Source of the DNA: Sphagnum compactum
Taxonomy: Eukaryota
NCBI GenBank assembly: GCA_965153455.1
Contig: OZ234494.1
Location: 10,106,001 to 10,170,000 of the forward strand
DNA: 64,000 nt
Reading direction: 5' to 3'
Shown here: one piece after another, positions 34,690 to 58,949 of the stretch
Numbering within the stretch: the first letter of the stretch is position 1
Layout of the letters: each line of letters starts with the position of its first letter
The notes under the pieces: generated by a model
Database searches by the model: none
What the model was told of the DNA's origin: nothing
The model's input: the letters and a program-made list of their open reading frames with translations, nothing else
Position numbers and translations under genes: made by a program

Positions 34690-37590
34690 TGGCCAGTTTC
34701 AAATCATATTCTTGTAGCATGAGCACCCATGATACATGTTCTCCTCTCAACTTATTTGATTTCATCAACCATTTTAATGGTTGATGATCAATGACTAGGT
34801 GAAAGAGTTGTTTTACAAATAACACTTGAAATGTGTTATAGCCATACTATTACAAAACATTCCCCTTTGTAAAAACTTTACTTGGATTCATTGTTATTAA
34901 TTGTGGGAACAGTTGGCATATGTGACCACAAATTTTCTCTATTCATCATCCACCTACTTAAATATTGTTCCAAGACCTAACATGTTCCATTTTTATGTAA
35001 TTAGAATGGTCACCCTATTATGGGTCATTCAAGATTGTTATTGAGGTCATTTGGGCTTTGAATTCTTCATAGGCATACCCCTATTCATTTTCCATTGCCA
35101 AGCTTGATCCACCTTCTACAACTTGGTGAATGGGTTGGCAATGATATTGAATCCCTTCATAAATCATTGATAGTTGGTTGCCAATCCCATAAAACCTTGA
35201 ACTTGACTAACATCCATAAGGTGTGGAACGTGTGTAATAACATCAACCTTTGTTTGTTGAACCTTTAGTCCTCCAAGGTACATCATATGACCTAGATATT
35301 CAATCCAATCATAGATGAACTTGCATTTTCCTAGATGGAGCTTTAGTCCATGTGTTTGCAAACATTGAAATACCTCATGCTCCCTCACATAAACACTAAA
35401 GATGATGATATCATTTATGTAACAATGTGCAAAATTCAAGCTTAATAAAATCTTGTCCATGACCTTTTGGAATTTTGTGGGTGCATTTTTAATCCAAATG
35501 GCAAAAACTTCCATTGATAAAGGCAATTTGCCATGTTCATCAATTTCCTAAAATGAGGTCTTCTATTTTTTTATATCCTTAATGGGCAATTGGTGATACC
35601 TTGACCTTAGTCCAACATGTTAAACACCTTGGCTTGCCAAATTGCATCAAAAATCTCTTCAAAAAAGGGCATGGCATACCAATCAAACTTGGTTTGATGA
35701 TTCAAAGGTCAAAAATCCTCACACATGTCTTTTAGTTTAGTTGCCAAAGATGTTCTTTTTGGTCAGCATCATAGTAGTTGACTCATATTCTCTTACAAAC
35801 AACTCTACCAACCCAACTTCCTATAATTCTTGGGTTTTGGATTGGATCAATGATTTTTCCAAGTCAATATATTTGTAAGGGTTTCAAAATATGGGCATAT
35901 CATTAGTCAATTCAATGCAAATTTCATGGCCTTTTAAAGGTCCCAAGTCATTCACATTGAAGGCAAACCCATCTTTGTAAGATCTCAAAACTTGTTCAAC
36001 CTACTTCACTCATTCTCGATAACTACAAGTCCAACTTGTGGTTCCCAATTTTTTTCATAACCATAGCCTTGGGCGTACCAAACTTGTCAATAACAATTGA
36101 TGCATTCACTAGCTAGTTGACTATTGCCATCATCAATAGCTCGTATGGATTGTCCCAACATAAATTTTACTAAATTTTCCATCATTAATTAAAGATCTTC
36201 TTTTGTTTTGAAAAAATCTTCCTTCTGAACAACATTCACACATTATTCATCCCATATTTGCCATGGGTGTTTGCATATCTATTCACCCCCAACCTCTGCT
36301 TTCATCATTTCAATAAGTAAAAAATATTGTGAGACTACATTGGTAGGGGTTATGGAAGATTGTAGGTGATGTTGTTCCGCTATACACAAGTTAATGATCC
36401 ATTTCAAGTAGTTGATGTCCATTGGGTGACCTAACGCCTATCAATGCGATGCCTCACCAATGGGAAATCCCATGGCATGTTCTTGTTTGTCAATAGTGGT
36501 TCCACCAATATGTGTTGGTGATGTATCCCAAACAAGTTTTGGCCCATTGTTTCAAAAAACATGGGATGCAAGAAAGTTAAGCACATTGGTAGGGCAAGTC
36601 ATAGTTGTTTCACTTTATTGACAATGACTAATAGTAGTTTGGACCATCATACTGAATAGGTTATGACAATGTCCCTTTATCCAAAATGGAGTCAACAATG
36701 AGTGGTGGTGGTCTGTGCACTCTATCATGTGCTAGTTTGAATAACTATGATGGCATGAGATTGGTCCACCATAACTATGGCCAATGAGCTTTTGAACCCA
36801 TTGTTACTACACCTAGCAAAACAATAGTTCCAATCTAGAATCTAATTTGTTGGACATTAACCATCACGTTGGCTCATGAATGTCGCATGGAGGGTACATT
36901 TTCCAAAATGTAAGCTAGGGGAGGTGTATGATGTAATTGTAAGTATTGTAATAATTGTAGTACTTGTAGCATCTCCCAAAACAAATCATATTTTGATTAT
37001 GTCTTGCAACTTGTTGCCACGGCCTACCAAAAAATGACCTTGGCAAAGGCCATCCTACTGTGACCAAATGAATAGGGCTTTGTTCCAACAACAAAACATC
37101 TCTTGGCGATGCCTTGAAATAATTGAATTACTAATAGTGGAAGCAATTCAAGACATTATTGAGCAAGGTAAACAACTTGTAGTGAAACATATTGAGCAAC
37201 TTCATCATTGTCAACATAAAGGTATTTTTGCACTTGTATTTCGAGTTGCAACACAATAGCCAATTTGGTGTCAATACCTCCAAACAAGTCAAGTCCACAC
37301 AATTTGCTTCTTTTGGACATTGCCAAATAATGATACTGGAGTCCAAAGGAAATAGGGAGATGATGTATGGCCCAAAGAAGTGGCATCCATTGTGGTCAAT
37401 GGCACAAAGGCCCTTAGCCACACTTTTTGCACATAATGTTATGCAATTTTTTGCAAATCTATTGTGGTGCCCCCACCATTATGCCTCTTTATTAATACCC
37501 AAGGGGACAATTGGAATGATGTCCATTTTTTGTTTTCTACCTCCTAAATTGGAACAATGTCTAATGAAAAAACATTGCCAATCTAGGTGT
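34690..37590 (-). mobile_element. Old decayed MTase-RT-RNase H portion of a related Gypsy element
   Basis: Minus-strand remnants GLDLFGGIDTKLAIVLQLEIQVQKYLYVD (MTase motifs I/II), GWPLP, AYILENV, KNAPTKFQKVMD...CYINDIII...KCKF (RT) and WVLMLQEYD (end of RNase H), in the same order as the young copy. Confidence 0.85.
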
Positions 37591-37594
37591 TGTT

Positions 37595-40500
37595 CACTAC
37601 AATGGACCAAAAATGGACAAATATTTAAAAAAATTATTATTCAACTCATGAAATTTGCATTTAAAATTGGGGTATTTAAAAGGCTACATGTGGATATTTG
37701 AAAATTTTAAATACTAACTAAATGCCATGTAAAAAAAATGAAACTTATGTTTTGCATTATGTTTTTATATCTTGAACTTGTCATATTCCCAATTTGAATC
37801 GTCAAAATTCAAATAATTCATATTAATCTATTTGAAATTCTTGTATTAAATTTGATAATGGGGGTGAAAGCACACTACAATGGCCAAAAAATGTTGTCGC
37901 AGATATTTTTTTCGAACATGTGCAACTTTCAACTTTCACCAAGCCAACATTAAGAGAGGTTTTCATAAATGATATTCAAAATAAGATAGTTCAATTGCCA
38001 AATAATGCAATTGTCAAAGGAAACTACATTTTTTGATTAATATTAAATGATTAAAGAGTATATTTGTGAAAAAATAGATGTTGTCACAATACATTACAAA
38101 GTGAAAATATATTCTTAAAATGATTCAAATAATTACAAAACTTGATGAAGCATTTAGTCATATATTGAATATGAATTGAATGTACCATTTCAATTACAAT
38201 CAAAAAATTTGATTCATAACATGAATTTAGTTAATTTTAAATTAAACTATCAATTCTAGATCTTTTCTAACCTAGTGGTGGGATCAAGTTTGAGACCAAA
38301 CATTGTGAACATCTATTTGTTGGATTATCTAGTGAGGCAAAACATTATTAATATTTATTGTTGCATCATTTGGTGGCCCCCAAATGAAAGTTTTTGTTTA
38401 ATTTTCCAACTTCCAAATGGTCAATTATTAATTTTGGACTTTTCAAAAGTTTGGAATTAATTAAATACATGATTAATGTGATTTCATAAAAAACATGTGA
38501 TTTAATAAGTTTTTCATTTGAACAAGCATAAGTGTGTTGAAAAAGACCATTTTGTTGAAAAATCATTTTCATATGAAAGATGACAAGGCTTATGTTGGAG
38601 GCCTTTGTATCAAAATCCATTTTATATATTTATCAAAATGCTAGATGAAATCAAAGAAAAATTGCCCCAAGATATACCCAAATATACCCCAAAAAAGTAC
38701 ATTTTTTTTGCCTAAAGCGGCCCCCCCATAGTGTGTTTTCACCCATGGACATGCATGGATAGTTTCATGGTCACCCTAAAGAACCAAAACCCATCTAAAA
38801 TATCTCCACCACAAACTAACAATCCCAAAGAATGTTGTGAAACTTGGCCTTTTGTGATTCAATAGCCCCTTTCCTACAAAACATACATGAAGGTGTACAC
38901 TCTTGCCATCTTCAAATTGTCATCCCAATTTGTACAATGTCATTTTTCCTTAGAAATCCAAGGTGAAGCTCATGGGGTATAACATAGTTCCATTGAATAA
39001 CACATTGTATGACACAACATTTGTCACAATGATTTTCACCTTCATAATTGACACCTTCATTTGTGGAGTGATAGAGTTGAAGTTTTATACATAGTGGTTC
39101 ACGAATGACTCTATGAACCTTTCCTAATCATCCCAATGAGGTCTATATATGGAATGGACAAGGCTTTAGGGTAAAAACAAAGTCAAAGGAGCCACCCAAC
39201 TGAGTGGACTCTCTTTAAAACTTCATTTTTGTATGTTTGGAAGATTACAAAAAAAGCATAATAGTTTGGATTATCATAATTTTTTTTTATTAATTTCAAG
39301 GTTTACATGTTCAAAACTTGACATAACCAAAAATGTTTTTGCATGTTCAAAACATTCAAATTTCAAATGGATAGTCCTTATTTTTTTCTACCAAATGTGC
39401 ACCATTCCTTTTGAAAATTGGAAAGGATTTTAACATTGATGATTAGAAAATACAAATAGTTTTCAATCCAAGTAGTTAAAAAAATCAATGTAAATAGTCT
39501 TCAAATGAATCATTGATTCCATGTCTTTTTAATTGGGATGCTTGTTGTTGACTTTGAGCTAGTTGGCTCCTTGGATTTTCTTTAATGAACCCAAGAGCCA
39601 CCATTCACATTTTGAGCATGTTTTATTCAATTTGTTTTGTTACGAAAAAAACTTTGGCAATGTTGATTAAATCAGTTGCAATAAAATGGCATCACACAAT
39701 TTTTTTTCAAATTCATGGTCCAAAATTTTGTACCAAAATTGGATTATTTATGCGTTCATGATTCCTTGAGTCATGTTAATCAACCTTTTCATTCAAATAT
39801 AGGTCTCTTGTAAATTTTCATGGGGCTTACATTGAAACTTTTACAAATTTGCAACTTTTTCATGTTGGTAATTCCTTCACAAAGTGTGAAACAATTCTAC
39901 ACAATACGATTGAAAGCAAATTGTGGCCCTTGTGTGTTGGTTGAAGGGTTTATTTATGTATTAATTGAGGGACTTGCCTACATATTAGTTGAAAAACTTG
40001 CTTGTGCATTAATTGAAGGCCCAACATTGCCACCTCAAGTTGAAGAACTATTATTACTATAAGGAATTTGCATATTAATGACTATTTTTGTCACGACCCT
40101 AGCCTTGGGCTCGCAACCAAGGCAAAAGCATGGAAAGGTGCGGGCTGAGAGTGCAATTCAGGAGTCACATTTGCATTCCTGAAAGTGTGAGAAAGTTTGA
40201 GGGAATGAACCCACACACTCCTAAATGGACTCCCATTTTGGGAATTAGAATCCCTATGGAGTCTTGAATTTTCAGAAAAGGATTTTAGGGGTCAAAATTC
40301 ATTGGATTAAAGAGTTTCTTATATCATTGGAAAGCTCTTGAGACGAAAATGTTTAAAATGGGCTCACATGACCCATTAGAGTACTTATAACACAAGTTAT
40401 GGCTGAAAAAAGGGTCGGGAATTAAAGTGCCAATTTGATTCCCAACCATTAAAAATCAAGAATCACCTTGAATTACATGCGTTCAGTTGACGTGCCACAT

Positions 40501-42818
40501 ATAGTTGGAAAGTTCTCAACAAGGGCTAGAACTTTGCTTAAGACCTCACCTTAATCGAAGGTCTGCACAAGAAATTATGAACATCAAAAGATTTGGGAGT
40601 CTTAATTTTTGGAATTTCGGGACTCCCAATTTGCGAGTCCCATGACAAAATAACATTTGGGTGCAGCCCTCATGACTAATCACAAATAATACTATAAAAA
40701 GGGAGGTGGTGGCTTCCCCCAAGTCCGGGCCGTGGTGAGTCTTGTGAACCCACGTATGCTCATAGTTCATTTGTGCACCAAAAGTGTTCCAACTATGCAT
40801 TAACCAACTTGTTGTTTGGTTTGTGTAGGTTCGTGTGAATAGTTGACCCATTTGTCATTCGTTCTAGTCCCCATCCCGGAGCTTTAGCACGTCCTTATTA
40901 CCTTCGAAGTGCTACAAGCTAGGAAGTGTACCCCAATTATTTCTTCCATTGTTTTCACATTCGGATTCCCATTCCATTCTTTCAAGGAGTTTGGGGGTGT
41001 GTCATTTTTTTTAGTTGTAAATGATTTTTTAAAGTTGTGAATGCCACATGTAATTTCTACTAGTGTTTAATTGCCTTGGACAAGTTGCACAAAATTTTAG
41101 TTGCAAAAGATGTGATGGGGCACCTAATTGAAAAATTAATCACATCAAAGTATGTTTAACACCAACTTTTCATCCAGCCAACATGACATGGTCATGTTTA
41201 CAACTAAATTTTGTAATTTCATATGTTTATATGGCATAATCATTTGTGATTAGTTTTATAACTAAAATATGGCTTAAACATTTCAATTTTTTTACTGCTA
41301 AAATGTTGACACGTGACAAGTTCCAAATTGAAAAAATGGCATCATGTGTCCTGCTTAAATTAGCCTAAGTTAAACCACCTAACCTAAAAGCTTAGAGGCT
41401 AACCTAACATGGGTTAAGTAGGTTAACTAAATGCATTCAAGTAGGTTGCAAGTGTGAGGATTTGAACCTTCACCTTCACATTAAAAATCAAGATTTTAAT
41501 AATTACATCATTTTTTCAACAATTGATCATTTTTGTCATTACATCATTATGAACATTTTTTCTTATTCTATTTATGTGACATAACCTACATTTTCTAATT
41601 ATTTAATTACCTTCGACCACTGTAAATTATTATAAACTATTTAACCCTAAATCATTTTAAGTTATTTTTTACTATTCTATCTTAGGTTATTCTAGGTTAT
41701 TCTACCCTTAAGTTGTAGATTCTACCTTAAGCTATTCTTGGCTATTATTCTACAAACCTTGAAAAGGTTATTTCTATTTAACTCCAAATGGTGTGCAAAA
41801 CATATAAGGTGCAACTTATTGAAATATATATATAATTAATTTACTTAAATGTAAATAAGGTGCCTATAATTCATTATGAGGATATACTTAAAAATTATCT
41901 AATTCTTATTTTAAGATATACCTAAAATCTGTTCAAAATATGCCATTATTTCATAGCGAGCTAAAAAAATCCCTTTATTTCAAATGTTTTTAAAAATATA
42001 TAAGTGGTGATTTCTTCAAGCCTTGGGATATTTTAGGCTATTGTAGATTATTTGAATTTAAGTTATTTTAAGTTGTTCTACCTTAGGTTACTTAATTTGG
42101 GTATTTTACTTTAAGTTGCTCTTCATTATTTTTGGTTATTATAACCTAAGCTATTATTGATTATTTTAGGTTATTCTACTCTAGGTTATTCTAAGTTATT
42201 TTAAATTATTTTAAGTTATTATACTTTAAGTATCCTAGGACATCTATAAATATTTTAATATAATTTGCTTGAAGTTATTTTAGGTCATTCTACCTTAAGT
42301 TAATCTTGGTTATTTTACCTTGCATTATTTTAGGCTATTTAACCATAGTAAAAATGTCCATTCATAAAACTACATTATTGTAGTAGTGTGCTTAAACTAT
42401 TTAAGGTACATAATGGTGTACCTAAAGGTTACCCAAACTATTAAAGGTACATAGGGGCTACTTAGGTTGAAGCTAGTTGATGCATGCATTAACATATATA
42501 AATTTACATGTATATAGTCGTAATTCAAATTGCATTGAATGCCACATGTTCAATCACCTATAATTACATTATTAATCACAAAAATAATTAAATTTTCATT
42601 TGATGTTAAACACCATTAGTTGTAAATGATATGAATGCATGTTTCATCTTCATTTTCATCCAAATCACATGTAGTTGCAAATCATAATCACATGTGTGAC
42701 TACAAGTCGTTTTTACCATGGTGCCATGTAGGGTAATTGCATTGGTAGTCACAAAAATGGTTGATTTGGACACAAGTTGTAAATACATGGGTTGGTATGG
42801 ACATGATTCCTTGTAGTG
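37595..42818. mobile_element. Nested CACTA-like / AT-rich insertions splitting the old Gypsy copy
   Basis: CACTACAATGG at 37595 and 37873, and TAGTG ends at 42388 and 42818. The interior is AT-rich with short tandem TTATTCTACCTTAAG-like repeats (~41640-42350). No matching 3-bp TSD found, so boundaries are uncertain. Confidence 0.4.
40089..41004 (+). mobile_element. Solo LTR (TGTCAC...GTGTCA), same family as 46285-47104
   Basis: TG...CA ends. Reverse-complement similarity to 46285-47104 (e.g. GGTGGTGGCTTCCCCCAAGTCCGGGCCGTGGTGAGTC). Flanks ATTTT/TTTTT. Confidence 0.75.
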
Positions 42819-42849
42819 TACTTGCAATAGTTGTTGATGCACATGGAGT

Positions 42850-43200
42850 CATAATGCCCCATGTGATGGAAACATAATTTGGTGATTAGTATACTTGTCA
42901 TTATTTGATCTACTCTTTATGGGCATGCTAGAATTCACGATATTTGTCCATTGGCAACCCTTAATAGTGTTGGGAAAACCCCTTCCATGCCATGAAAGGT
43001 GTAAACATATGGGGATTGGAAATCTATTACATATCATAATAGGTATCAAACTTTTGGATGAAGTTGTTGAGTTTGATGGTGCCAATTGCATTAGAAAACC
43101 AACATGGCCCATTGGTGGTTCTAAACATTTCATCCCTATCCCATAATAATGGAATAACAATGCAGTCTAGCCAATCTTTCAGAATTGGATCTAAATTCCC
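42850..43200 (-). mobile_element. gag remnant of the old related Gypsy element, into which the young copy inserted
   Basis: Reverse strand GGCACCATCAAACTCAACAACTTCATCC...GATATG...GCATGGAAGGGG aligns to 44926-45030 (GGCACCATCAAGTTGGAGGACTTCATTC...GATATG...GCATGGAAGGGA). Confidence 0.8.
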
Positions 43201-43398
43201 TAAAAGATGTTGATGGCATCAATGGTCAAAATCACGCCCCTCAACTTGTATACCCAAATGTTGATGTTGTTTATGCTTGAAAAAAGCTCATGACACTTCT
43301 ATAATGGATGTTAAACTGGTAACATTAGGTGCCCCAAATGAATCTTGTATCTTGTTGTCCAAACCTTAATTCCTAAGCAATGTTGAACCTATGGGCTT

Positions 43399-43713
43399 TG
43401 TCATGACCATATGTGTGTTAGCTATAACATATAGTGTGCTATGGTAGCAAGTAGTGCCTACTTAGGGTTTTTAGGTTTAGGGCTAGAGGAAAGTGGCTCT
43501 TCTGGTAGGACCCACCCTCATGTTGTGAGTGGGGGTATAAAGTGTGAGAGAGGGCTCAGTTGAGCCTAAAGCGTTGGGAGTAATTGGAGTTAGTGGAGCT
43601 TTGAGCTATGGTGTCCCGTTAGCATTGGCTTAAATTCTCTAAGTGGAGTGGGCTTGGTTTGACTGTATGTGTTTACATCACGAGTTTTATGATAGTAGAT
43701 CTTTCTCGTGACA
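43399..43713 (+). repeat. Terminal repeat A1 (315 bp)
   Basis: Direct repeat of 52928-53260. TGTCATGA...TCGTGACA, TATAAA at 43536-43541. Lacks 18 nt present in A2. Confidence 0.95.
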
Positions 43714-43718
43714 TTTTC

Positions 43719-43739
43719 ACTCAAAAAACTATGTTTTTT
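43719..43739 (+). promoter_or_regulatory. Putative self-priming primer-binding site
   Basis: Starts 5 nt after A1 and does not begin with TGG. CAAAAAACTATGTTTTTT (43722-43739) is 17/18 complementary to A2 53087-53104, which lies just downstream of the TATA box. Confidence 0.7.
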
Positions 43740-44816
43740 GGGAGTAGTTAAACCGTGGGGGTTTTGTGATCTTGCTCTCTGGTTGTGTGGCCGAATTGGG
43801 AGTGGGTGGTGTCAAAAGGAGCGCCTTGGCGAGAGCTTTTCAACACACCAAAGAATGTTGGATTTTGTTCAGCGGATCAAAAGTTATGATCATTTGAAGT
43901 TGCTAGTTTAGGGTTTGACAGTTTTTAGTGACGGTTTACCAGCAACGTTAATTTCTCAGATAAGTAGAAATTTCCTTGAAAAAAATTGCTGAAAATTGGT
44001 AGGAGTGTAGCTAGAAAGTCGATCTACAATCTGACAAAGACAGATTGTGTTTTCATTGAACGGTTTATACGTTATGTTTGTTTTTGTGGTGATGTTTTTT
44101 TCTGGTTTGTGCACACCTAGTGCAGAAGCACTGTCGGATTTTTAGCTAAATAACTAGGGAAGATCATGTGCTGCAATTTTTTGAAGTTGTTGCTTGAGGG
44201 CTGAATTACATATGGGAATTGTTTGGGATTTTTTTGGTGGAGCCAATTGGGAGTATTGACCTTCGAAAGTTCTCAAGTTTGTGTAGATTTATGCCCAGGT
44301 TTTTTTCAGCAGTTTTTCATAGGTCATATCTCGGCATACAAACCTTTTTTTCAGTCGAGTTTTGGAGAGAAGGAAGATCTAGTTGTCCTTTACATTCTGG
44401 CCGAAGTAAATTGGCATTTGGTGTAGGAACGGTGGAGATATGGTTGTTTGAGTGCTCGCTGCCCAATTTCGCAACTTTTGGCTATGGCGGATTAAGGATT
44501 TCGCCGGAAATTGAGCTTTTGGCTAGTGGGGAGCACATTTTTTGACTTGTTGTGGTGGGCCGGTTGGACGAGTTGAGCCGCTACTCAGCTAGGTGGTTGA
44601 GTTGAGTATTCGTTTCTGGTAGCAAATCGGGCACGAGGTCGACGGTATTTAGTGGTGATTCAATTTGGGTACTGGGTTTGGTGATTGGGTCATCACGGAG
44701 CAGTTTGGTGGTCCTGTGAGGGACCATGGTGGAAATGGTGGAGTTACACGTAGTGGGTTGAGGTATTGACTACCTTCCCCCACATCATCGGTTGTTGAGG
44801 AGGACGAGGTTATCAT

Positions 44817-47552
44817 GAATAACAAGTTTTCCATATTACCGTCTAGTATTGCGGCCCCATTGATTTGGGATATGGACGGGGGTTCTGGGGCCATGAAGGG
44901 CCCCCGACGTTACTCAGGTGCAGTGGGCACCATCAAGTTGGAGGACTTCATTCACGAGTTTGATTATTGGTGTGATATGTAGATGTTACGTAACGCCAGA
45001 TTGTTCTCACCCTTCTTGGCATGGAAGGGATTGTTTCAGCACTTGGAGGGTCCTCCGATGGATGATTATCATGAGTTTCGGAGAGATCATGCTACTGAGA
45101 TTGAGGAGTGGAGGCAGCATTGGTCTCCATCCTATGTATCTATTACTCACGGTGGTGTTGTTAGTGATGGTATTACTACACCGTCTACTCCTAGTACGAG
45201 CACACATGTTATTCCCCCACCTCTATTTAACCCTATCACGGAGTTCTTTTTGAGGCTGAAGAAGAACTACCAGGCGGTGAAGACGGAAAAGTTGAAGAGT
45301 CTTCAGGAATTTGAGCGGAAGATTAATGAGAGTCTTCGCGAGGCATACACTCGTATGCGACGGTTGATTGCAGTTACCCAGGGGGTGACGGAGGCTCAGG
45401 CATTTCAATTTTGGTATGGATTCTAGATAAGGAGTTGCAACAGAGAGCACGTGATGTGACTCTCATGAGTGACGATTTTCCCACATCGGCCCATGTGTTT
45501 GCTTTGTCTGAGAAGATAGAGCTTAACATGGTGGAGGAGAGGGTGGTGACATCTGGATTCAATAGGGATATAGTTACTACTTCTCGTGGACAGCAGTCCA
45601 CCTCACAACCTCGTACTAGTGGAGGTGGGAGTCGTGGAGGTCAGGTACGACCTCAGTCAGGTTCTGGAGGGACGGGTGCACAAAGACCATTGCCTTCATT
45701 CGCTAGTCAACAGCAAGGACAGTCTTGTTGGACATGTGGTGGTGCTCATATTCGGAGGGATTGTCCACAGGAGAGTGGAGGACAGACTTTGGCTGATGGA
45801 TCTCAGTCGGCACAAGTTTAATGTGATAACTGTGGTCGGGTCAGCCACCCTCGTGAACGTTGTTTTGACCTTTACCCAAAATTGAGATTAGGTCGTGGTG
45901 GAGCGGCTCAAAGAGGTCGTGGTGGTAGAGGTGGTAGAGGTGGTGGGGGTGGTAGAGGTACACCAACACTTAGGGCACCTCCCATGATCACTCCTCACCC
46001 TACGACAGAGGCAGCTATGGCTGCTAGGATTGAGCAGTTGGAGCAAAGGCTTGCTACCATGGCAAGTTTCCAACATCGATCACATTCCAGAGGTGAGGTT
46101 CCCACATCTTATGGGGGAGATGATCTCTTTTATATGGCTAGTGTAGCACAAATTGAGGCATCCGTTGCAATGACGAGAGGCGTCACTCGAGCTCGGAGCC
46201 ACATGGGGCAATTGTGGGGTTGGATCCACAGAGGGGTGAAGCTGGTAGACAGGCTAGGCTTCCCCAATCATTCTTGTTGTCTGATGACGCGCTCCCCAAG
46301 TCCCTTGTTGAACCCACTTGAAGGTCCAACTACGTTGAGTTGCGGAAAGTTGGGACTTGAGGGCCGCTCCCGACTTCCAGCACTAAAGAGGGGTAGAGGG
46401 GCGTGCTAGAAGTCCCGGGATTAGACTAGGAAGAGGACAAGCTTTTCACCTACTCAAATCTACATCAAAACCAACCCCAAGTTGGTTAGAACTCATTCTG
46501 CACCCTTTTGGTGTTGGGACAAGCCACGGGTTAACTCGGACTCACTTGACTCACCACGGCCCGGACTCGGGGGAAGCCACCACCTTCCCCCATATAGTAT
46601 ATTCTGTGTCTCACCGCGGAGGCTACATCCGAATGGCTCTTTTTCCCGGGACTCCCAAGTTGGAGTCCCGAAACTGTCCCGGGTTGGAGTCCCGGAACTT
46701 TGGGAGCTCATATCTCCCGGCTTCGACCTCTGATTGGAGTGAGGTCTCAACCAAAGTTGTAGCTCTCCTCGAGAGCTCTTCAAAACCATGTTGCATTCCT
46801 TCAGGCAACGTCGGGAAAGGGTCGATTCCCGACTTTTAGTGGTCGGGAGTCAAACTGCCAGTTTGACTCCCGGCCCTTCTTTTGCCCATAACTTGGGCTG
46901 CAGATGTCCAAATGGCCAATGCGAGGGCATTTTAGACATTTACACTTCAAGACCTTTCCATTTATATAAAGAACACCTCAAGGCAAGGTGTTTTGACCCC
47001 TTGTAATCGCTTCTGAGTTTTCGGGAGTCCCGGAGGACTCCAACTTCCCACTTTTGGGAGTGTGGGCTTCACCCTCACACTTAGCCAGAAGTGGGGTTGC
47101 GACATTTGAAGTGGTTAGGACTCCTTCCATGGTTCCTACTCCGCCTATTGAGCCAACAGTGGGGCCAACAGCATCGACATCACATGTAGTGGACATTGAT
47201 GTATCATCGAGTGCATTGTCGCGGATGGTGACTTCAGTGTTGGGATCCCCAACATTTTCGGCTAATGATTTGATGGCGTCAGGAGTTGACTTAACTCGTG
47301 TATTTCGACTAGCAGCCACATTGTGTGAACCTGGGAGTGTTGTTGCTACAAGTGCCGAGGTGTGTGAGGGTGTTGATGTGGGGCAACTTGTGGCAGGGGA
47401 TGTTGTTGTGGAGCAATTCGTGGTATCAGGTGTGGATAGTCCTTGGCAGGCAGCGGCGATTAAGATGGATGCATTACAAGCTCGACCAGCCATCGATCGT
47501 GAGAGGCTTACACCTAGTGTATGTATGTTGGATAATCGGAGTGGTATTTTCT
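44817..47552 (+). pseudogene. gag region (two CCHC zinc knuckles, RGG-rich tract), interrupted by a solo LTR
   Basis: Capsid-like ...KLKSLQEFERKINESLREAYTRMRRL; CWTCGGAHIRRDC and CDNCGRVSHPRERC; RGRGGRGGRGGGG. In-frame stops and frameshifts. Confidence 0.85.
46285..47104 (-). mobile_element. Nested solo LTR with 5-bp TSD
   Basis: Minus strand TGTCGCAACC...GCGCGTCA. Flanks TCTGA (46280-46284) and TTTGA (47105-47109). Removing it restores the host frame ...PQSFLLS-EVVRTPSM.... Confidence 0.9.
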
Positions 47553-47554
47553 AG

Positions 47555-47878
47555 TTGGTGAGTCCTACGGGCCAGGTGTATAGACCAGATCGGGTTTTGT
47601 TGGATTCTGGTGCCCAACCCTTGATGTTGGGGAAGGCAGCATGTATTGGTTTGGGTATTCGGAGGTCAGAGCTTGAGCCGTGCCCATTCCAAATTCAGAC
47701 ATCACTTGGTGGAACCAGTGATAGGTCTAACTTCATGACACGTGAGAGATTGTTGGTGCAAATGAAACCGAATCATGTGACAGATAGCTCTAGGTTGGGA
47801 GTGACTGTTATTGTTACAGCAGCTGAGTCGTATGATGTACTAGTTGGAGGTGTCGTGTTGTATCCGATGGGTTTCTAG
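47555..47878 (+). pseudogene. Retroviral-type aspartic protease domain
   Basis: VLLDSGAQPLMLG active-site motif and YDVLVG C-terminal motif. Confidence 0.9.
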
Positions 47879-48329
47879 ATGGATTATTGGACAGAGACAA
47901 CGACTTATCGACCTGGTTGGCAGTCTGGGGATGGACGGATGAGCCACGTGCCTGTGAGATTTATTTCTGGGGTTCGACCAGGAGGGTCTCCCCCAGAGGT
48001 GTTCGCATCAGTTGCTGGTTTTAGTGGAATGGTCACTTGGCCAGGTGACTTGTTGGAGGGCAACATTTCAGCCATTGACACTTCGGTCTACGAGGATATA
48101 GAGGAGGTTTCTAGCTTTGTTGCAGCAGTGTCCTCCTCATTGGATGTTCCACTTTGGCGTTTGAGTGGGGTGTTACGGCAGGATGCCGATTGTTTGGTAT
48201 CACAGGCTTGGCGTGAGGCTTTTGTGCCTGTGGAGGAGGAGGAGGTTCCACAACGGACTCCTATTTTTCGTCCTGTTGGGTTGTCTCCATTGGATACTAC
48301 ACCCATTGCGTGGGAATATCCTTCCGAAG

Positions 48330-49265
48330 GTATTTGCGTGTTGGATCTATTTGGTGGGATCAGCACTGGTTTGGCAGCAGTGCTTCAAGTGGGTATTCTA
48401 GTTTGGAAGTACTTTTACGTGGAGAAAGATGAGACCGCGAGGAGGGTTTCATCGCTCCATCTTGCATTATTGATGCGGCGATATCCTGAGTTGTTGCCGA
48501 GGTCGGCTATTTGAGGATATCAGCGAGCTTTGCCATCAAACATTGCATTGTTTGGGGCGCAAGACTTTGCGAGAGTTGGTCCTATTAATTTGGTGATTGC
48601 TGGATGGCCATGCCAGGGTCATATTTGGGCTGGTCGTGGTGAGGGATTACGTGACCCTCTCGTATGTTTTGGGAGATGTTGCGGGTGTTACATCATCTTC
48701 AAACACATCAGGCACGTGTTCCCGCGTACATTCTGGAGAATGTACCTTTGTTGGGTGATTCTAGGTCTCATGTGATGGCAAGTGTACACCAAATCTGGTC
48801 TTGGATTGGACCAACGGTTTTATTGGATGCAACGAGGGTTGGCTCACGTGCTCATCGTCCCCGATTGTGGTGGACGAACTTGTTGTCGAGGGAGGTGTTG
48901 AAACGGGCATATGAGACAGTACCACGATCTTCTCAACTCATAGTGGATAGTATCTTAGATATTGGGCGATGTTCTCAGGTGGTGAAAGTTGTTGATAGGT
49001 CACCCATGGCAGTGGTGAATTGAGTGGGACAGCCTAGGATGGCGTTACCCACATTTGTCAATTTTCCAGCATCACATGCCTATAGAGAGGGTGGTCCTGG
49101 GCTTGTATGGGATAGTTCTTTGCAGTAATTGGTGGAGCCCAACGTCAATGAGAGAGAGTGTGCAATGGGTTTCTTACAGGAGTGACATTTGTCCCTTTTA
49201 TTTCCGAGGCTTCACGTCAACACGTGTTGGGTCAAGCTATGGACCTGAATTGTTTGACTTGGATT
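48330..49265 (+). pseudogene. C5 cytosine DNA methyltransferase domain, DNMT3-like, embedded in pol
   Basis: Motif I VLDLFGGI, II YVEKD, IV IAGWPCQG (catalytic Cys), VI YILENV, VIII LDATRVGSRAHRPRLWWTNL, IX ERECAMGF and X RQHVLGQAM, in canonical order. A few stops and two frameshifts. Confidence 0.92.
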
Positions 49266-49569
49266 GTTAGCCTTGGTATGGCTGAGCAGCGTCGGCTCAG
49301 AGCCACATTTGTAGTAGTTACACCTCTTGTGAGCTCGCTGTCCACCGTGACGGTAGAAGCATCGACTGGGGGCGAGAAAAGTTGTACATTTCATCCTTGG
49401 AGTACATGGGATGTGTTGGGAGAGCATGTGAAGGTTGTGGCCCATGCTGTTGGAGGAGTTTGTTGCTCCATTGGTGTTCCATTGGGTGACTTGGAGGAGT
49501 GTGTGGCTTTTCCCAAGGTTTTTGCATAGCAACCCATGGCGTCGTCCTCTTCCTCTAGTGTGTCTATCG

Positions 49570-50960
49570 AGGAGACTTGGGAGCCTTTGATGGGGCCCAA
49601 GCTAATAGGAGGAGAAAGGCGACGGTTGATGCAATTCCTAAGAGCTTACAGGAGTTGTTTTGCCTTTAGTATGAAGGAGTTGGGTGCTTTGATTGGACTT
49701 GGTATACGGATTGAGTTGGCTAGTGACACGCCAATCTTCCGTTGTCCTTATAGATATAGTGATATGGAGAGGGACCTGATTCGGAGTCAGACGTTGGATC
49801 TATTAGAGGCTAGATTAGTGGAGTTGTCGCATGGTGAGTATGCATCAGCCACTGTCATGCCTGCCAAAAAGGATGTACATGGCAACTATTCAGATAGGCG
49901 GATGTGTGGAGACTACCGTCCTATCAATTGGCAGACTAAGTTCGATAAGTATGCCATGCCTACACCTGAAAAGATCTTGATGTGTGGGACATGCGAAGGT
50001 TTTTAGTACACTTGATCTTCGAGCAGGGTACCATCAGTTGCCGATTTGAGAGGAGGACAACGCCAAGACCGCATTTTGGGGCATCAACTCTCACGGCAAG
50101 GATTGTTTGTATCAGTGGAAGTTCTTACCCTTTGGGTTGAAGAACGCGCCTGCCGAGTTTCAACGTGTGATGGATAGGATCTTAGCAGGGTTGGATTTTG
50201 TCCGGTGTTATATCGATGATATTGTGGTATATAGTGATATCGTGGAAGAGCACCAAATTCATCTACAAATTGTGTTTGAGCGGTTGAAGGCTCATGGTCT
50301 TCGTTTACATCCTGGGAAGTGTAAGTTTTTCCAGGAGAGTGTGGAGTATCTGGGTCATGTGATCTACACAGGTGGTTTGGGAATGCAACAAGCCAAGGTG
50401 GAGGCTATTGCACGTATTCCGCGTCCCACGGATGTGAGTAGGGTTCGTGCTTTCATGGGATTGACGAACTACTATCGCAGGTATGTCAAAGGCTTTAGTG
50501 CGATGGCAAAGCCTTTGAACATGTTGAAGTTGGATCAGGAGTGGCAGTGGGGTGATGAGCAGGAGCGAGCTTTTGTGGAGCTCAAGACTAGGTTAGTTGC
50601 AGCTCCCATCTTGAGGAGACCTATTAAGGGGCGTCCATTCCAGCTACACATTGATTGGAGTATGTTGGGACTTGGAGCGGTGTTGACACAGTGTGATGAT
50701 GAAGGGAAGGAGTTTGTGGTGGCCTATGCGAGTCGTTCGAACAATGCAGTGGAGTCACGCTATAGTTCTTACGAGGGAGAGTGTTTGGCAGCGGTGTGGG
50801 CTGTTGCACACTTCAGGTGTTACTTGTTTGGCACACAGTTTACCCTTGTCACTGATCACTAGCCGCTCAAGTGGTTGATGGAGTTCGATAAATTTACAGG
50901 AAAGCTTGCACGGTGGGCTCTCATCTTACAGGAGTATGACTTCCAGGTGGTGCATAAACC
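49570..50960 (+). pseudogene. Reverse transcriptase and RNase H
   Basis: RMCGDYRPIN, LPFGLKNAPAEFQR, YIDDIVVYS, KCKFF, LHIDWS, YSSYEGECLA, TDH, WALILQEYDF. Confidence 0.97.
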
Positions 50961-51399
50961 TGGAGTTACAAACCTCGATGCCAATGGATTGAATCGAAAC
51001 CCATGCACTAGCCAAGAGGATAATACTGGACTAGATGGCATGGCGAGGTTGATGAGGAGATGGTGCCAGGTTGGCATGCATCGGCCTTTTTGTGCTTGTT
51101 GGGTGTGGACTCTAGTATGGAGGGCCACGTGACATCTTACTCTAGTCAAAGGGTAGATGGCCAGTCTTCAGATCCTGAGGTTGGGGATGGTAGCATCGGT
51201 CACCATGATGTTCATGATGATACATTAGTGTTGGAGTTTTTACGAACCAGTATGGTGTCAGGCATGGTGAGTGCTAAGGAAAGAGACCGTGTTCTCCAAC
51301 GAGCTAAGAGGTATCGGTTGGAGGGGACACATATACTCCGAGTGTGGGAGGATGGTAAGGTACGGATTGTACCACATCCAGACCAGAGAAGGCGTATTG

Positions 51400-52655
51400 T
51401 GCGGCATGCCCATGAGGAGTTGGGTCATTTTGGAGTAAAGCGGACATATAGTTTACTCCTAGGTCAGTATTGGTGGCGTGGTATACACACCGATGTGCAA
51501 TGATTAGTGTCACATTGCATGGTTTGTGATAGGGTGAGGGCATCGTTCAATACCCCTACACCACAGTTACACCCCTTGCCTATTATGGGGTTGGGTTATC
51601 GCTGGAGTTTGGACTTTGCGGGACCATTACCATTGACGGTATGGCACAACAAATATGTGTTGGTGATGGTGGAGCACTTCTTTAAGTGGATTGAATTGGT
51701 GCCATCCCCTGACAAATCCAGCGAGGGAGTAGCGTATGCATTCCTTAATAGGGTGTTTAGTCATTTTGGTGCACCAGCTGAAGTGTTGACCGATCAAGGT
51801 ACGGAGTTTCAGGGTGAGTTTCAGGTCTTGTGTGACAAGGCGTTGATTGATCACCGAACCACGTCTCGAGATCATCCAGAGGCAGATGGTTTAGCTGAGC
51901 GTGTGGTACAAACGGTGAAGAGGGCATTGCGCAAATATGGCTTACAGAAAGGCCACCTAGGGGATTGGGATATTCAGTCACCATGGTTGGCCATGGGATA
52001 TCGATTCAGTCGTCAGGCATCCTTGGCTTCCTTCTCACCTTATTTTCTATTGTACGGCCCAGATCTAGACTTGCCAACAACGATTCGTCGTGAGTCTAGT
52101 GAGGTGGTGAACCTTGATGACCCGGAGATGTGGTTGAGGGTGTGTTCTCAACGTGAGCTCTTTCGAAGAGTTATGCCAGTAGCGTTTGAAAACCTTGCCA
52201 TTGTTCAACACAGGGATACATTGCGATATGCGATTATCCGGGGTGGAGGTTATCGACCATTGATTCGTAGGTTCCATGTGGGGGACTATGTCTATTTGCA
52301 GCAGACTGCACCAACGACATTGGATGTAATGGCAGGCCGCACTATCTTACGAGTGGGAGAGGTGTTAGCTTCTGGAGTTCTCATGTTGGAGGGTCGTGAT
52401 GGTGTTGTTTGGAAGGACCATGTGCGTAATTATGCGCCATGTCACCTCCCAAATGTGGATGGTATAGTTGACCCAAGTTTGGCAATGGTACGGGCCGGCT
52501 TGAGGTGTATGTTATGTGGGTCTAAAGGTGGAGCAGCCCATATGTTGGTGTGTGATAAATGTTCTAGGGGTTGGCACATGGCGTGCATGACTCCACCTAT
52601 GGATGTTGTTCCCGTTGGACGGTGGATTTGTCCTCGTTGTACTTTGGAGGGGTAG
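51400..52655 (+). pseudogene. DDE integrase with C-terminal PHD finger
   Basis: HHCC (HEELGHFG...CMVC), D (LDFAGP), D (TDQG), E (GLAERVV). C4HC3 PHD CMLC...CDKC...WHMAC...WICPRC at ~52506-52640. Confidence 0.95.
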
Positions 52656-52805
52656 ATGACTTGATCTTCACATGGTATGGATTGCAGATGGGCGACTAAC
52701 GATGGGGCAACATAGCACCCGGCCTTTTGATTTGTGCACCCGCGAAGGTGTATAGCATGTAGAAGATGTATAAGGCTACCTGGAAGTTAGAGGGACCTAA
52801 CCACC

Positions 52806-52821
52806 AGCTAGGGGGGCGAGT
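52806..52821 (+). promoter_or_regulatory. Polypurine tract
   Basis: AGCTAGGGGGGCGAGT immediately precedes the TG of repeat B1. Confidence 0.8.
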
Positions 52822-53380
52822 TGTGGTACACATGTATTTGTGTATGTTCTCGTCCATGTTATGTGTTTGTGTGTGTATGTGAGTATGGTATGTCAGCGAT
52901 GTATGTTGTATGTATTCACACGACAGCTGTCATGACCATATGTGTGTTAGCTATAACATATTGTGTGTTATGGTAGCGAACAGTGCCTACTTAGGGTTTC
53001 TAGGTTTAGGGTTAGAGGAGAGTGGCTCTTCTAGTAGGACCCACCCTCATGTTGTGAGTGGGGGTATAAAGTGTGTGAGAGGGCTCAAAAAACATAGTTC
53101 TTTGAATTGAGCTTAGAGCGTTGGGAGTAGTTGGAGTTAGTGGAGCTTCGAGCTATGGTGTCCCGTTAGCATCGGCCTAGATTCTCTGAGTGGAGTGGGC
53201 TTGGCTTGACTGTATGTGTTTGCATCACGAGTTTTATGATAGTAGATCTTTCTTGTGACATTTTCAGTTGTGGTACACATGTATTTGTGTATGCTCTCGT
53301 CCATGTTATGTGTTTGTGTGTGTATGTGAGTATGGTATGTCAGTGATGTATGTTGTATGACGATATGTATTCGCACGACA
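52822..53380 (+). repeat. 3' terminal repeat block: B1 (52822-52925), GC, A2 (52928-53260), TTTTCAGT, B2 (53269-53380)
   Basis: B1 and B2 are near-identical (TGTGGTACACATG...CACGACA; B2 has 8 extra nt). A2 matches A1. Confidence 0.95.
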
Positions 53381-56300
53381 GCTTAACCTAACCTTAATTC
53401 TAAAGCACCTACACCCATTAAGAACATTCCACATGTTCAAACAAAAGTGGGATTCATTATGAACATAACAATTATGGTCTATTGGCCATCAACCTAATTC
53501 CACCATCACAATAATCAATGGAACACTTTGGTGATCAAATCCAGGAATGTCCACAATAGTCCCAAAATAGATTACAACCTAACCCTTCCCACTAATTCCC
53601 AACCTTGTTTTTGCATTCTTAAGGTTTTGTGCTTTAATGAAGAAAATGCACAAGTTGAACTTGTTTGGTTAACCCAAATGTGGTATTGTTTGGGTTCACA
53701 CATTTGTTACAAGATTACAAGGTATATAACACAAGATTTAAAACTTGGGTCCCACACACTCATTATAGAATTACAAGTGCCAACTAAACCATATGTTCCC
53801 CACACCTATACCTTCACAAATGTGTCAACAAACAAGGTGGAAAATAGATGTTCCCCAATTATAACACACAAGTGGGAATGAAATTTTTCATACCTCATGA
53901 ATTCTTAGTTTTGTAATTCATGTTTGAAAATTACAACAAAACACTTAAATAGAACATCAAAAGTCAACAACATGACATTCCATGGGTGTTAATGATGCAA
54001 CATTCTACCACTTGTGGGTTACAATTATTGATGTTTATTGACATCAACATTAAATTGCCCAAAAACTGGTTTCACATACACCATTGCCCCATGTTAGTGA
54101 AAAAACCCTTAGAAATTTTCCTATTTGAATGGGCTAAACCTCCCACATGTGTAGGATGGCCTACAAATAGAAACTTGGGCATGAATTCAAAACTTGTTGA
54201 CATGATGTGGTTCACATTCAAATACAATAACACATTGTTGTGTGTTATATGCTATTGGCCCACTTGAATGAAAATTTGAATTGAACAATGGCACACCTTT
54301 TTTAAGTCTAAAATCCAATTTTCAAAATTAAAAATTGAAATTTAATTCAATTTCCAAAGACCAAATCTATTTTAAAATCAACGTTTTTCATACCTTAAGA
54401 ATAATCATTATGAAATCACCTCCATAAAACCTTCGTCATTGAAGGTTTTCCAACAATATGAAGAACATGCCTCAATCTATTTAAATTTTTTAATTTCAAT
54501 ATATCGAATTTTCAATGAAAACATTGTTCAATATTCAATATTCCTATATTATAGGTCTAAACAGTATGCAACCATATTGGTGCACCTCTCCTCATTGAGG
54601 GCTTTTCAGTTGGTATCAAGAGTGAGATGGGGGCTACCGTGGTTTGGGAAATTTCAATGTGACAAAAAAAGAAAAAACAAACAAACAAACAAACAACCGT
54701 CCTTGATAAATAGATGCCAAATTTTCACATGATCATGTAAGTGAGAAAAAAATCAAGCTTCTAAATCATTAAGATGGGGCATTAATGTTTGTGTGTGTAA
54801 CCTATAGACACACTTCATTCTTATTTTTATGAAAAGACAAATGTTTTTGGGAATGCACCTTTTCATATATGAGTTATGAAGTAAAACTTTGGGATATGAA
54901 TAATGTCGCCCTTAGGATATATAGTGATGTTCCTGGATTGCACAAGAACATAAGGGGGGCATCACTATTTATTTATCATTGAAAAAAAATGAAATTGTTT
55001 CAATTGTTGCTAAAAGGAGTTTAGGAATCTAACATCCAAAATCTCTTACCTATGAGTGATGTTTCACATTTTTCTATCAAACATTACATTATTTTTAAAG
55101 TGAAATTATGCAATTTCAAATATAATTTTTCAAAATTTCATCATATGAAGAATAACTTTGCAAAGTACACTTTTTGTTATGTATTTGTAATAATAACCCA
55201 ATGGTTTGGACAATAAATAGTTTTTCACAAGTTGGGAGTTCAATTTTCAATAATTTTGACAAAGAATAATATCTATTTTGTCCAACTAGACCTTTTATGA
55301 ATTATTTTGTGCCAAACATTAATTGTAGTTACAATAGCCCACCTAATTGTGCACTCACCCAATGTAAACTTTTTTTATGCAATGATTTTTCAAATCATGG
55401 TGTTGTTGGGAAAATATATTAGGTGCACATTTTGGATACATGTTGCCACCCTTCATTCTTGAGTAGAATTGTTACACCATTTTTTACCTAACCTTTTACA
55501 ATGCATTTTGATTGAATAATATAGACTTAAATGGTTTTACATTTACATGTCCCGTACTAAACACTTACACTTATACTTACATGGATGTAGATGGCCCTTG
55601 TACACTTCCATGGAGTGCAAGTCCTAAACCATATACACACACAACATTGAAAACTACATCTATGAATGAAAAGAACATCATCCACATTTAACTATCTATA
55701 GAGGTGGCTAAATTGCAATGGCCATGCCAACTGTATCTTGAGAGTGTCCAAATTTTGGAAGCTTATATGTTGGGAATGTCCAAAGTGTTGAACCATTTTT
55801 TTTGTGATGGGAAAATCAACAAGGCCCGTCACAAAAAAAAAAGAGAAAAAAGCGAAGGCATGCACAACTAATCAAGAGAAACCAAAAGGTATCACTAATA
55901 CCATATTGGGACCCCACATTCAACCTTGCAGTTCTGTAATGTGTGATTTTGGGAGATGAAATGGAGTCTTTTGAACAATTATTCAAATTGAATTTATTGG
56001 ATTCAGCAAGTGACCTATTTCCAAACGCTTCCAAACTATCCTCTTCAATGAATTATGTGACTCAGCACCCACCACTGAAAACTTGTTATATTCCACGTTG
56101 GTAACCTATCTTGCAAACCCTCTCGCTTCCACCTCACACTACCAAGGTAATTACTTCTATAAGTGGGTAAGTATCCGAGGTAAGTGAGTCCCAAATGCAA
56201 ATGAGTACTATGGAGATAGGTAAGTAAGTAGGCAAGGCACATGGTGGCGACTAGGTACATAGATACTAGATCCATGGGGATGGTAAGGGCATAGGTAACC

Positions 56301-57314: not shown

Positions 57315-58949
57315 TTTAATGTTCTCCGTGTCTGGGGGCAGTGCAGAGGATGGTGGAGTAACTGACAAATCAGGGTGGTGCATGCTACGGACCGCTGGTC
57401 CATGTGGTGCATGAAAAGGTCCATGCGAGCTGTGATGATAGCCTTTTATGCCAAGCTTTGCAGGTAAGCTGTAAACGCGGTTAGTGTTCGAAATCATGCA
57501 CACATACATACAATTGCACCTGCTTGTAAATTGCACTTTATTCAGCTGCCAATTCTGCACTGCTCATGTACTTCCTCTGCAGTCATATTAAAATTATTAA
57601 GTACATGAGTTGTAAGTTTTATGTCAATAGTTCTTGGCTAAGTGAATTCATTGAATTGGGTGCAAAAACATTAAGTTACTACAGTTCGGTAAAGTAACCC
57701 TGTCTTTGGGCCTCCTTTCACCCCCTAAACGCTCTTTCAGCGGTATCCGGAAAGTAAAGACATTTTAATTAATCTCAGTATGAAATGATCATACTCAGCA
57801 TTTAATGCACAAGGTTCAGGACTAACTATAGAAGTTGTACAGTTAGCAGCAGTGAAAATATATGTAGCAGCAGTAGTGGCGCTCAGGAAAAAGGAAAGAT
57901 AGGATGAAACTCAGTTTACCACCAAAATTGATGGTTTTCTGAGTTTCATCCCCCCTCGAATGCTAATGTACTGTTTTGCAAGTTCTTTTGAATCTCACCC
58001 TGTGTATGACCAAACTCAGGGTTCAATATGGACAATATGAAAGAAAATGGGAGTCTGAGAACCCATTTTCTTTCAATGTTGGGTCATGGGGTCAATTGTG
58101 TTTAACTGTAAAAGTAGCCTGTTTACTTGTTTCCACTCAGTAGCCCATCCACTCTTTTGATTCCTTTATTGGCATCCTTCATTCAAACCACTATGGAGTG
58201 GTCAAGGCCTTTCCCATTATGTTGGGTACGTAGCAGTGGACCTGTTAGGCTCAGTGAGACATCCAACATAATGGGCATTGGCAAGGCCATTCCAAGACAT
58301 TAAGGTCTGGGGTGACAGATTCAACAATTTAGAAACAAATGTATGTTTGACAGACATATTTCAGTCACACATGTATGATCATCATCAGAAGATTATGTTG
58401 TATAATGCGGTCAAGAAAATGAAATAAGATGCCACCCTCAACAAACAGATTTCAACCATAAGGGTTGGTAAGCCTTTTCAACAGGTGACTTGTTTTACCC
58501 TTTGAATTTTTAAAAAACTACAAAAGTTGTTATTGCAAATCTCTTTTTACCTTGGCTAAGTGTGTTGTGACTAGCGACAGTGGTTGGTTCTCCTCCCAGC
58601 CTGGTACTCCAAGTTGGAGAACTTGGTTGGCCTGTTATCATAGGGACACTCTGCTTCTTATAAATGGACAATCAAAAGTTGACACTTGGACACTTCCTAC
58701 CCCATCACTAAATTGCTTGAAGGTGAAAATGAATGATTATGTTTATTTTAACATTCACATCAAGCCTATGGAGGTGATCTGGTAAACAAAAACTAAAGGT
58801 TCCAAGGTTCCTAGTGAATGGTCATGTGGCACTCTTAATGTACTCCTGACCATGAATAGGTTCTGCCATTTTAAACAACCATGTATGCTTCTTTGTATTG
58901 TTGCACATGTTCCTAGTTAATAGCCACTATTGTATTAACAATGGTGTTC

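Follow-up and report, generated by a model that had tools for sequence, protein, structure and literature searches.

A head-to-head joint of integration termini inside a Ty3/gypsy-type element

The 16-mer CACGACAGCTGTCATG at positions 52919–52934 of the window (the whole 64,000-nt stretch of DNA analysed here) is probably the joint at which both integration termini of a Ty3/gypsy-type lineage meet head-to-head, 2 nt apart. It reads CACGACA-GC-TGTCATG, was delimited by sequence search and comparison with relatives, and carries no strand assignment. Its exact sequence occurs only once in the 64,000 nt; when up to 3 mismatches are allowed, one further match is found, which is the site's own reverse strand with 2 mismatches (0.32 expected from shuffles). 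CACGACA matches TGTCATG inverted at 6/7 positions. The site forms the border of two repeats, B1 (52820–52925) and A2 (52928–53266), of a decayed element, and the same two 7-mers are found at the right end (53374–53380) and the left end (43399–43405) of that element. This bears out the proposal of the earlier note that the 16-mer is the right terminus and the left terminus set head-to-head with a 2-nt spacer.

The element spans 43399–53380 (9,982 bp, plus strand) in the order A1, an internal region of about 9 kb, B1, A2 and B2. The four letters directly to its left, GCTT (43395–43398), recur directly to its right (53381–53384) and, by comparison of the termini, represent a 4-bp target-site duplication. 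Repeat A1 (43399–43719) opens with the left integration terminus TGTCATG (43399–43405), closes with ...CATTTTCA and is 88% identical to A2, an 18-nt gap included. The gap lies at 43556–43566 of A1, which lacks 18 nt present in A2 (53084–53108) around the predicted RNA start and the self-primer segment; as it covers both, the 5' repeat of the window copy is defective, besides its ORFs. Right behind A1, at the position of a primer-binding site of the self-priming type, we find a leader (43720–43740) that is complementary at 17 of 18 positions to 53088–53105 in A2. The internal region (43741–52809), as read from Pfam matches and ORF text, contains gag with CCHC knuckles, protease, DNMT3-like motifs, reverse transcriptase (RT), RNase H, an integrase (H2C2 and rve) and a C-terminal PHD finger, and it is interrupted by many in-frame stops and frameshifts. 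Pfam placed RVT_1 and RT_RNaseH at 50050–50862, Integrase_H2C2 at 51024–51503, and rve together with PHD at 51504–52655, while the protease motif and the CCHC knuckles are visible in the ORF text. Pfam gave no match to a tyrosine recombinase (Phage_integrase or other) in the 18 ORF pieces of the element.

At the 3' side, a polypurine-tract-like run, AGGGGGGCGA (52810–52819), immediately precedes B1, and a G-run stands at the same place in the listed unique B-A-B copies. B1 closes with the right-terminus sequence CACGACA (52919–52925) and is 91% identical to B2, an 8-nt indel included. According to repeat alignment and complementarity, A2 carries a TATAAAG motif (53065–53071) and the leader-complementary segment (53088–53105), which is the predicted RNA 5' end. 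Finally, the start of B2 (53267–53380) is fused directly to the end of A2, in what would be a junction of the U5 end with the U3 start, and B2 closes with the right integration terminus CACGACA (53374–53380), as placed by repeat alignment and breakpoints. The joint had been described as lying inside the LTR; this stands if the LTR is taken as the reverse-transcription unit B+A, and it does not stand in the canonical sense, no pair of identical LTRs flanking the element.

Other repeats are found in the window. On the minus strand, 34777–43023 and sequence beyond 53384 apparently make up another related element, the third, which the 43399–53380 element interrupts; CATGACA at 53971–53977 could be its left terminus. 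An 85-nt tandem duplicate at 17217–17386 belongs to another repeat family, as does a pair of 172-nt repeats, 86% identical and 26 kb apart (31383–31554 and 57763–57934).

The permuted repeat layout recurs in related loci

An integrase-anchored scan of metagenome contigs yielded 80 loci at 44–90% identity, which were compared by means of repeat probes drawn from eight of the loci. Matches were obtained in 61 rows, that is, 60 loci and the window; the other 20 loci come from other lineages or do not extend far enough downstream. Downstream of the integrase, the order B-A-B is present in 36 rows (29 unique, once the same insertion seen twice is removed), B-A, ended by a contig end or a deletion, in 2 rows, A-B in 1 row, and a single B followed by unrelated flank in 19 rows (17 unique), while 3 rows have an upstream A only. 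The tail consisting of polypurine tract, B, A and B is thereby found in 29 unique copies from three groups with 45–87% integrase identity, and within each copy B1 and B2 differ by substitutions. The window itself holds an older and more decayed relative (31698–33840, plus strand) with the same tail: an integrase remnant is followed by GGGCGA, B1' (33358–33456), A2' (33457–33741) and B2' (33742–33840), and its B ends in CACAACA.

At the 5' side, all 14 rows with a visible end pass from flank into A and the leader, and none begins with B; in 10 unique copies a single A at the 5' end is combined with B-A(-B) at the 3' end. The permutation A-B-A-internal-B was seen in 0 of these 14 rows, and neither this permutation nor a solo A-B unit was found in about 890 kb of loci and the window, where solo units would be detected only by chance in the flanks, since the loci were gathered via the integrase gene. 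Among the 17 unique copies with a single-B ending (L002, L065 and 15 others, e.g. L015, L016, L040, L045, L058 and L066), two, L002 and L065, are complete in the form A-internal-B and flanked by perfect duplications; A probes gave no match at the 5' ends of two group III copies of this kind, L062 and L070. The copies with a single B may have been inserted directly, as a form with one repeat, or may result from later B1×B2 deletions. Every copy examined, including that of the window, is decayed. The layout is a property of the lineage.

Insertion breakpoints coincide with the arms of the joint

We compared the 10 complete copies in which both ends are visible. A perfect 4-bp duplication flanks seven of them (window, GCTT; L002, TACA; L004, AAGG; L023, CATA; L046, ATGT; L065, TTTT; L074, CCTT), three of the four letters agree in two others (L037 and L057), and one copy (L050) has no duplication. 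The duplications sit exactly outside TGTCATG and CACGACA; in control comparisons, 0/90 perfect duplications were obtained across copies and 3/120 at shifted offsets.

Independently of these copies, Logan contigs of four public runs (X2, X8, X9 and X17) were aligned to 52500–53700 at 80% likeness, and the figures that follow come from 24 of 250 rows listed. Among the rows listed, contigs break into unrelated flank exactly before 52928 in 12, 17 and 5 cases (X8, X9 and X17, respectively), with flanks that are A/T-rich, mutually unlike and in agreement at only 0.42–0.55. Likewise, 18, 17, 4 and 2 of the listed contigs (X8, X9, X17 and X2) break exactly behind 53380, again into A/T-rich flanks that are unlike each other. 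A third cluster among the rows listed, behind 53266, shares a consensus that resembles the leader behind A1. A cluster of loose ends in which flank is followed by B-A does not appear among the 24 of 250 rows listed, which is no evidence of its absence. Taken together, the perfect duplications in 7/10 copies and the contig breaks at 52928 and 53380 place the insertion breakpoints at the arms of the joint, where the earlier note had expected them.

The contigs also revealed how the copies of the family differ from each other. Over 52500–53700 in runs X8, X9 and X17, C>T and G>A changes are found at 56–63 places each, compared with 1–29 for the other types, an excess that fits methylation-driven deamination of silenced copies.

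The joint is conserved between groups with unrelated flanks

Of the 38 rows that contain a B|A border, 36 have the two arms exactly 2 nt apart, the exceptions being L017, which has a 30-nt deletion, and L033, which is decayed. Between group I (window, L014 and L049) and group II (L075 and L042) the 16-mer is identical at 16/16 positions, while the integrases of group II (e.g. L075 and L042) are only 45–50% identical to that of the window, and the 80-nt flanks on either side of the joint show an identity of 0.45–0.59 between the two groups, compared with 0.47–0.49 in shuffled controls. In group III, 12–13 of the 16 positions are kept. The conservation of the palindrome in divergent relatives, on which the proposal of an attachment site depended, is in this way found across groups I and II against flanks at random-level identity.

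Within the 29 unique joints, the left arm is CACGACA in 17, CATGACA in 4, CACAACA in 4 and another sequence in 4; for the right arm, TGTCATG is counted 21 times, TATCATG 5 times and group III variants 3 times. The suggestion that the site had been a perfect palindrome, with TGTCATG derived from TGTCGTG by CpG deamination, is contradicted by these counts, as TGTCGTG is found in 0/29 joints and the left termini are TGTCATG or TGTTATG in 10/10 copies. It is the other arm, CACGACA, that contains the CpG, and CATGACA and CACAACA are its decay forms. Since TGTCGTG is absent from the 29 joints and the CpG belongs to CACGACA, the asymmetry of the arms is a conserved feature. The spacer is GC in 11 joints, AC in 11, AT in 4, and AA, GT and TC in 1 each; because it varies, the centre of the joint is not always palindromic. 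A copying of the spacer from the flank, as in IS circles, was considered and rejected, for the spacers of L004, L006, L012 and L013 differ from the right flank; the spacer of the window copy, GC, agrees with the first two letters of the GCTT duplication by chance only.

Two further arrangements were noted in relatives. In a lineage with 68% integrase identity, L024 has a joint-like CACGACA-GT-TGTCACG at about 8653, where the right arm is one base off TGTCATG and no repeat probe matches. In group II (e.g. L075, about 8960–8993) the right arm is duplicated subterminally, as CGTCACGACA, 5 nt and CGTCACGACA, and this duplicate may be a second integrase-binding site.

Reverse-transcription signals delimit a B+A unit

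In the listed copies of all three groups, a G-rich polypurine run abuts B1. At the other end, the first 10–18 nt behind A1 can pair with positions ~161–183 of A, with no more than 1 mismatch, in 11 of the 13 copies tested; in L002 the best pairing lies elsewhere and in L037 there is no match. This complementarity between leader and A is seen in the window (43720–43740 and 53088–53105) and in L004, L019, L046, L049, L050, L057, L065 and L074, and the complementary segment stands 22–32 nt downstream of the TATA box where a TATA box is recognised. The leader and the A segment differ in sequence between groups I and II while their pairing is kept, so the pairing covaries. Altogether, the primer site looks like one of Tf1-type self-priming and not like a tRNA primer site, and the predicted start of the RNA falls within A, so that the joint, about 160 nt upstream of it, would lie in U3.

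The start of B and the end of A, which would be the ends made by reverse transcription, have no inverted-repeat similarity. Their border, A2|B2, is imprecise in 8 of the 29 unique copies. B2 of both L006 and L018 includes 3 nt of polypurine tract, and their A2 is shorter by about 22 nt and 2 nt, respectively; L057 has deletions on both sides of the border; 2 nt are missing in L038 and L042 and 1 nt in L059, and 1 nt is extra in L067 and L078. These 8 length variants compare with about 2.2 expected from the gap rate inside B (24 events per 3,211 aligned nt), a modest excess in which several variants are changes of ±1 nt in A/T runs. The pattern suggests that A2|B2 is the U5 end joined to the U3 start, and that end-joining or template switching produces it afresh with every insertion. 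The conservation of the joint, the breakpoints and the positions of polypurine tract and primer site all support the view, put forward in the earlier note, that an attachment site lies within U3 and that the integration ends are apart from the reverse-transcription ends.

A bryophyte relative of KnitGypsy-Dnmt3

The ORF that encodes the integrase and PHD finger of the element was compared with known proteins. It is 81–87% identical to proteins of Marchantia polymorpha and Calypogeia fissa, two liverworts that are its closest named relatives, 70% identical to a Sphagnum fallax protein, and about 50–53% identical, in pairwise comparison over 87–99% of the ORF, to proteins of Klebsormidium nitens. 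With Ty3/gypsy elements the window element shares the pol order protease, RT, RNase H and integrase, the last of these having an rve DDE core; it also shares short inverted repeats that form TG...CA termini, a target duplication of 4 bp, and a polypurine tract ahead of the 3' repeat and a primer site behind the 5' repeat, although the latter two delimit the B+A unit and not the integration ends. In place of identical direct LTRs at both ends, its 5' end consists of A only and its 3' end of B-A-B, and in no copy (0/14 visible 5' ends) does a B-A or A-B unit stand at both ends. The split direct repeats, A-internal-B-A-B, are those of DIRS, Ngaro and PAT elements; in contrast to these, it has a DDE integrase instead of a tyrosine recombinase, and 4-bp duplications instead of an insertion without target-site duplication.

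The combination of Gypsy domains with a DIRS-like repeat order is that of KnitGypsy-Dnmt3 of Klebsormidium nitens, for which the legend of Fig. 4c of de Mendoza et al. (2018, PMC5890265) gives a DIRS-like repeat arrangement with Gypsy-like domains. The repeat order is in this way already in print for an algal relative, in a figure legend only (PMC5890265). In KnitGypsy-Dnmt3, a DNMT3 domain is inserted into a pol of Gypsy type (PMC5890265), and a DNMT3A-like domain is present in L023. In the window element, DNMT-like motifs lie between protease and RT (about 48300–49023) in the ORF text only, and these pieces have no Pfam match at E ≤ 0.01. The close relative L023, which is better preserved, matches the DNMT3A catalytic domain over 6382–7785 (E = 4e-08), with PF00145 at E = 0.0019, below the cut-off. 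The window element and KnitGypsy-Dnmt3 differ in host, the latter belonging to an alga whereas the nearest named proteins of the former are from liverworts. By the likeness of its sequence the window element is a bryophyte relative of KnitGypsy-Dnmt3, and the pol order of the lineage reads as gag-PR-DNMT3-like-RT-RH-IN-PHD. On KnitGypsy-Dnmt3, section 9 and the Fig. 4 legend of PMC5890265 say nothing about abutted termini, target duplications, the positions of primer site and polypurine tract, or a DDE-integrase route to the layout, and its supplements may hold more. In our targeted literature searches on the layout and the lineage, only PMC5890265 bears on the subject, and no description of the abutted-end joint, 4-bp duplications, primer-site and polypurine-tract geometry or a mechanism was retrieved; PMC11982613 proved to have no bearing on it.

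A proposed joining of cDNA ends and cleavage at the internal joint

The anatomy is probably best explained if the cDNA ends are joined and the integrase then cuts at the internal abutted-end joint, giving A-internal-B-A-B. All steps beyond the anatomy are ones that we infer, with a circular intermediate and its insertion among them. The scheme by which LTR elements are reverse transcribed is established, and following it, reverse transcription would build a linear B-A-internal-B-A molecule, the ends of which are the start of B and the end of A. A2|B2 would then arise through the joining of the U5 end to the U3 start, whether the end-joining machinery of the host fuses the two, as it does in a 2-LTR circle, or the RT switches template from one end to the other. 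The DDE integrase would nick after each CA of the joint in the repeat proximal to the primer site; as the nicks are 2 bp apart, they would leave recessed CA-3'OH ends with 2-nt 5' overhangs, the normal processed substrate, and strand transfer with a 4-bp stagger would produce A-internal-B-A-B. Among four conceivable products, this one alone would be expected to replicate, because it alone retains a 3' copy of R. A precedent for cutting abutted ends exists, the integrases of PFV and HIV-1 having been reported to cleave the palindromic LTR-LTR junction (PMC1180852, PMC1905944). Against a circle stands the fact that two identical joints predict A-B-A-internal-B as often as A-internal-B-A-B, whereas the former is seen in 0/14 rows; one idea on this asymmetry is that the left repeat may become double-stranded well ahead of the right one, so that the integrase would assemble there first. 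To a wider claim we give equal weight for and against, namely that in the whole lineage of DDE-integrase elements, from streptophyte algae to liverworts and mosses, the attachment site has moved from the LTR ends to the internal abutted-end joint, with replicative insertion only after joining of the cDNA ends in a 2-LTR-circle-like intermediate.

The same final layout, along with a variable A2|B2 border, would result from a route without a closed circle, which we consider unlikely while giving it some weight. Here, the integrase would cut the joint of the left repeat in linear cDNA and insert the long piece starting with TGTCATG together with the short B fragment ending in CACGACA, and host end-joining would then seal the leftover ends (end of A, start of B) within the chromosome. 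As an alternative, plus-strand RT would jump from the end of A to the start of B before the cut. Such a route could explain the single permutation (0/14 A-B-A), as under the standard scheme the left repeat would become double-stranded well ahead of the right one. It would require the integrase to hold a free fragment of 110–180 bp. Sequence data cannot separate it from the cleavage of a circle.

It is very improbable that the element is of the DIRS/Ngaro/PAT type and that the B|A joint is the crossover site of a tyrosine recombinase, to which a DDE integrase would be irrelevant, even though A-internal-B-A-B is the order described for Ngaro (PMC3783388) and for SymbioDIRS-Dnmt3 (PMC5890265). 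The 18 ORF pieces, which include H2C2, rve and PHD, have 0 recombinase matches, and the termini are TG...CA. Moreover, tyrosine-recombinase elements are not expected to make target duplications, while perfect 4-bp duplications flank 7/10 copies.

A reading in which A alone is an ordinary LTR (TGTCATG...TTTTCA), with B as a 3' untranslated segment recopied by read-through past the 3' LTR and with the end of A as the true right attachment site, accounts for the TG start and CA end of the A of group I and for a primer site that abuts the end of A; we nevertheless regard it as highly improbable. The right breakpoint is the end of B, not of A, in all 10 complete copies, and the polypurine tract stands ahead of B and not ahead of A. 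In addition, the end of A has no inverted match to TGTCATG, in contrast to CACGACA (6/7), and in group II it reads ...TTCAAT. Although the window copy is decayed and tandem LTR structures can arise by unequal recombination, a one-off rearrangement, a product of tandem-LTR recombination or an assembly artefact, with the 16-mer as an accidental junction, is scarcely credible, because the same layout is found in 29 unique copies that belong to three diverged groups and have flanks and duplications of their own, and in a second element of the window, with B1/B2 substitutions within each copy and an invariant joint spacing, and the different flanks of the loci argue against a single segmental duplication.

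Comparison with known systems and meaning

According to the textbook view, the ends that an LTR retrotransposon or a retrovirus integrates are the ones produced by its reverse transcription, and a 2-LTR circle is a dead end; in the retroviral LTR-LTR junction, there are usually 4 nt between CA and TG. Under the preferred reading, in which a DDE integrase cuts an internal joint, the window lineage parts the two sets of ends, with the integrase sites together inside U3 and the reverse-transcription ends, devoid of an inverted repeat, merely joined. The cut site would lie 110–180 bp inside U3, with 2 nt between CA and TG, in every repeat, while the U5|U3 join would be passive and sloppy. Retroviral 2-LTR circles are alike in that a retroviral-type integrase cuts abutted ends at an internal near-palindrome to give processed linear ends (PFV, PMC1180852; HIV-1, PMC1905944); they differ in that the junction there is the U5|U3 join itself and a side route at most.

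With Ngaro, PAT-like and DIRS elements the lineage shares the repeat order A-pol-B-A-B (PMC3783388) and an internal B|A joint that has the sequence of joined element ends, whereas theirs is a tyrosine recombinase and the window lineage has an rve DDE integrase, TG...CA termini and 4-bp duplications. In the minicircles of the IS3, IS30, IS21 and IS256 families, abutted ends with a short spacer are likewise the substrate of DDE-catalysed insertion (PMC3299598). In contrast, these are DNA elements of bacteria and involve no reverse transcription; it is the transposase that makes their circle, and the junction is confined to the circle and absent from an integrated copy. The comparison with IS3 is an analogy and not a membership. 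As for Tf1/Sushi (Tcn1) elements, a primer site right behind U5 pairs with the 5' end of their own RNA and not with a tRNA (Neumann et al. 2019, PMC6317226), but they have ordinary LTRs and a chromodomain (PMC6317226), while the window lineage has permuted repeats and an integrase ending in a PHD finger.

If the wider claim is true, the lineage would be a natural and obligate case of a circle junction serving as integration substrate, an idea long debated for retroviruses, and would represent a convergence with the tyrosine-recombinase elements Ngaro and PAT and with bacterial IS minicircles. If the explanation is true, the lineage would be a natural system in which to ask whether a retroviral-type integrase can have an abutted-end site within U3 as its regular substrate. 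The explanation would also account for a Gypsy-type element with the repeat order of a tyrosine-recombinase element, an oddity recorded but left uncommented in 2018 (PMC5890265). Finally, LTR-finding software that expects two identical terminal repeats would overlook this lineage, or annotate it wrongly, in genomes of bryophytes and charophytes.
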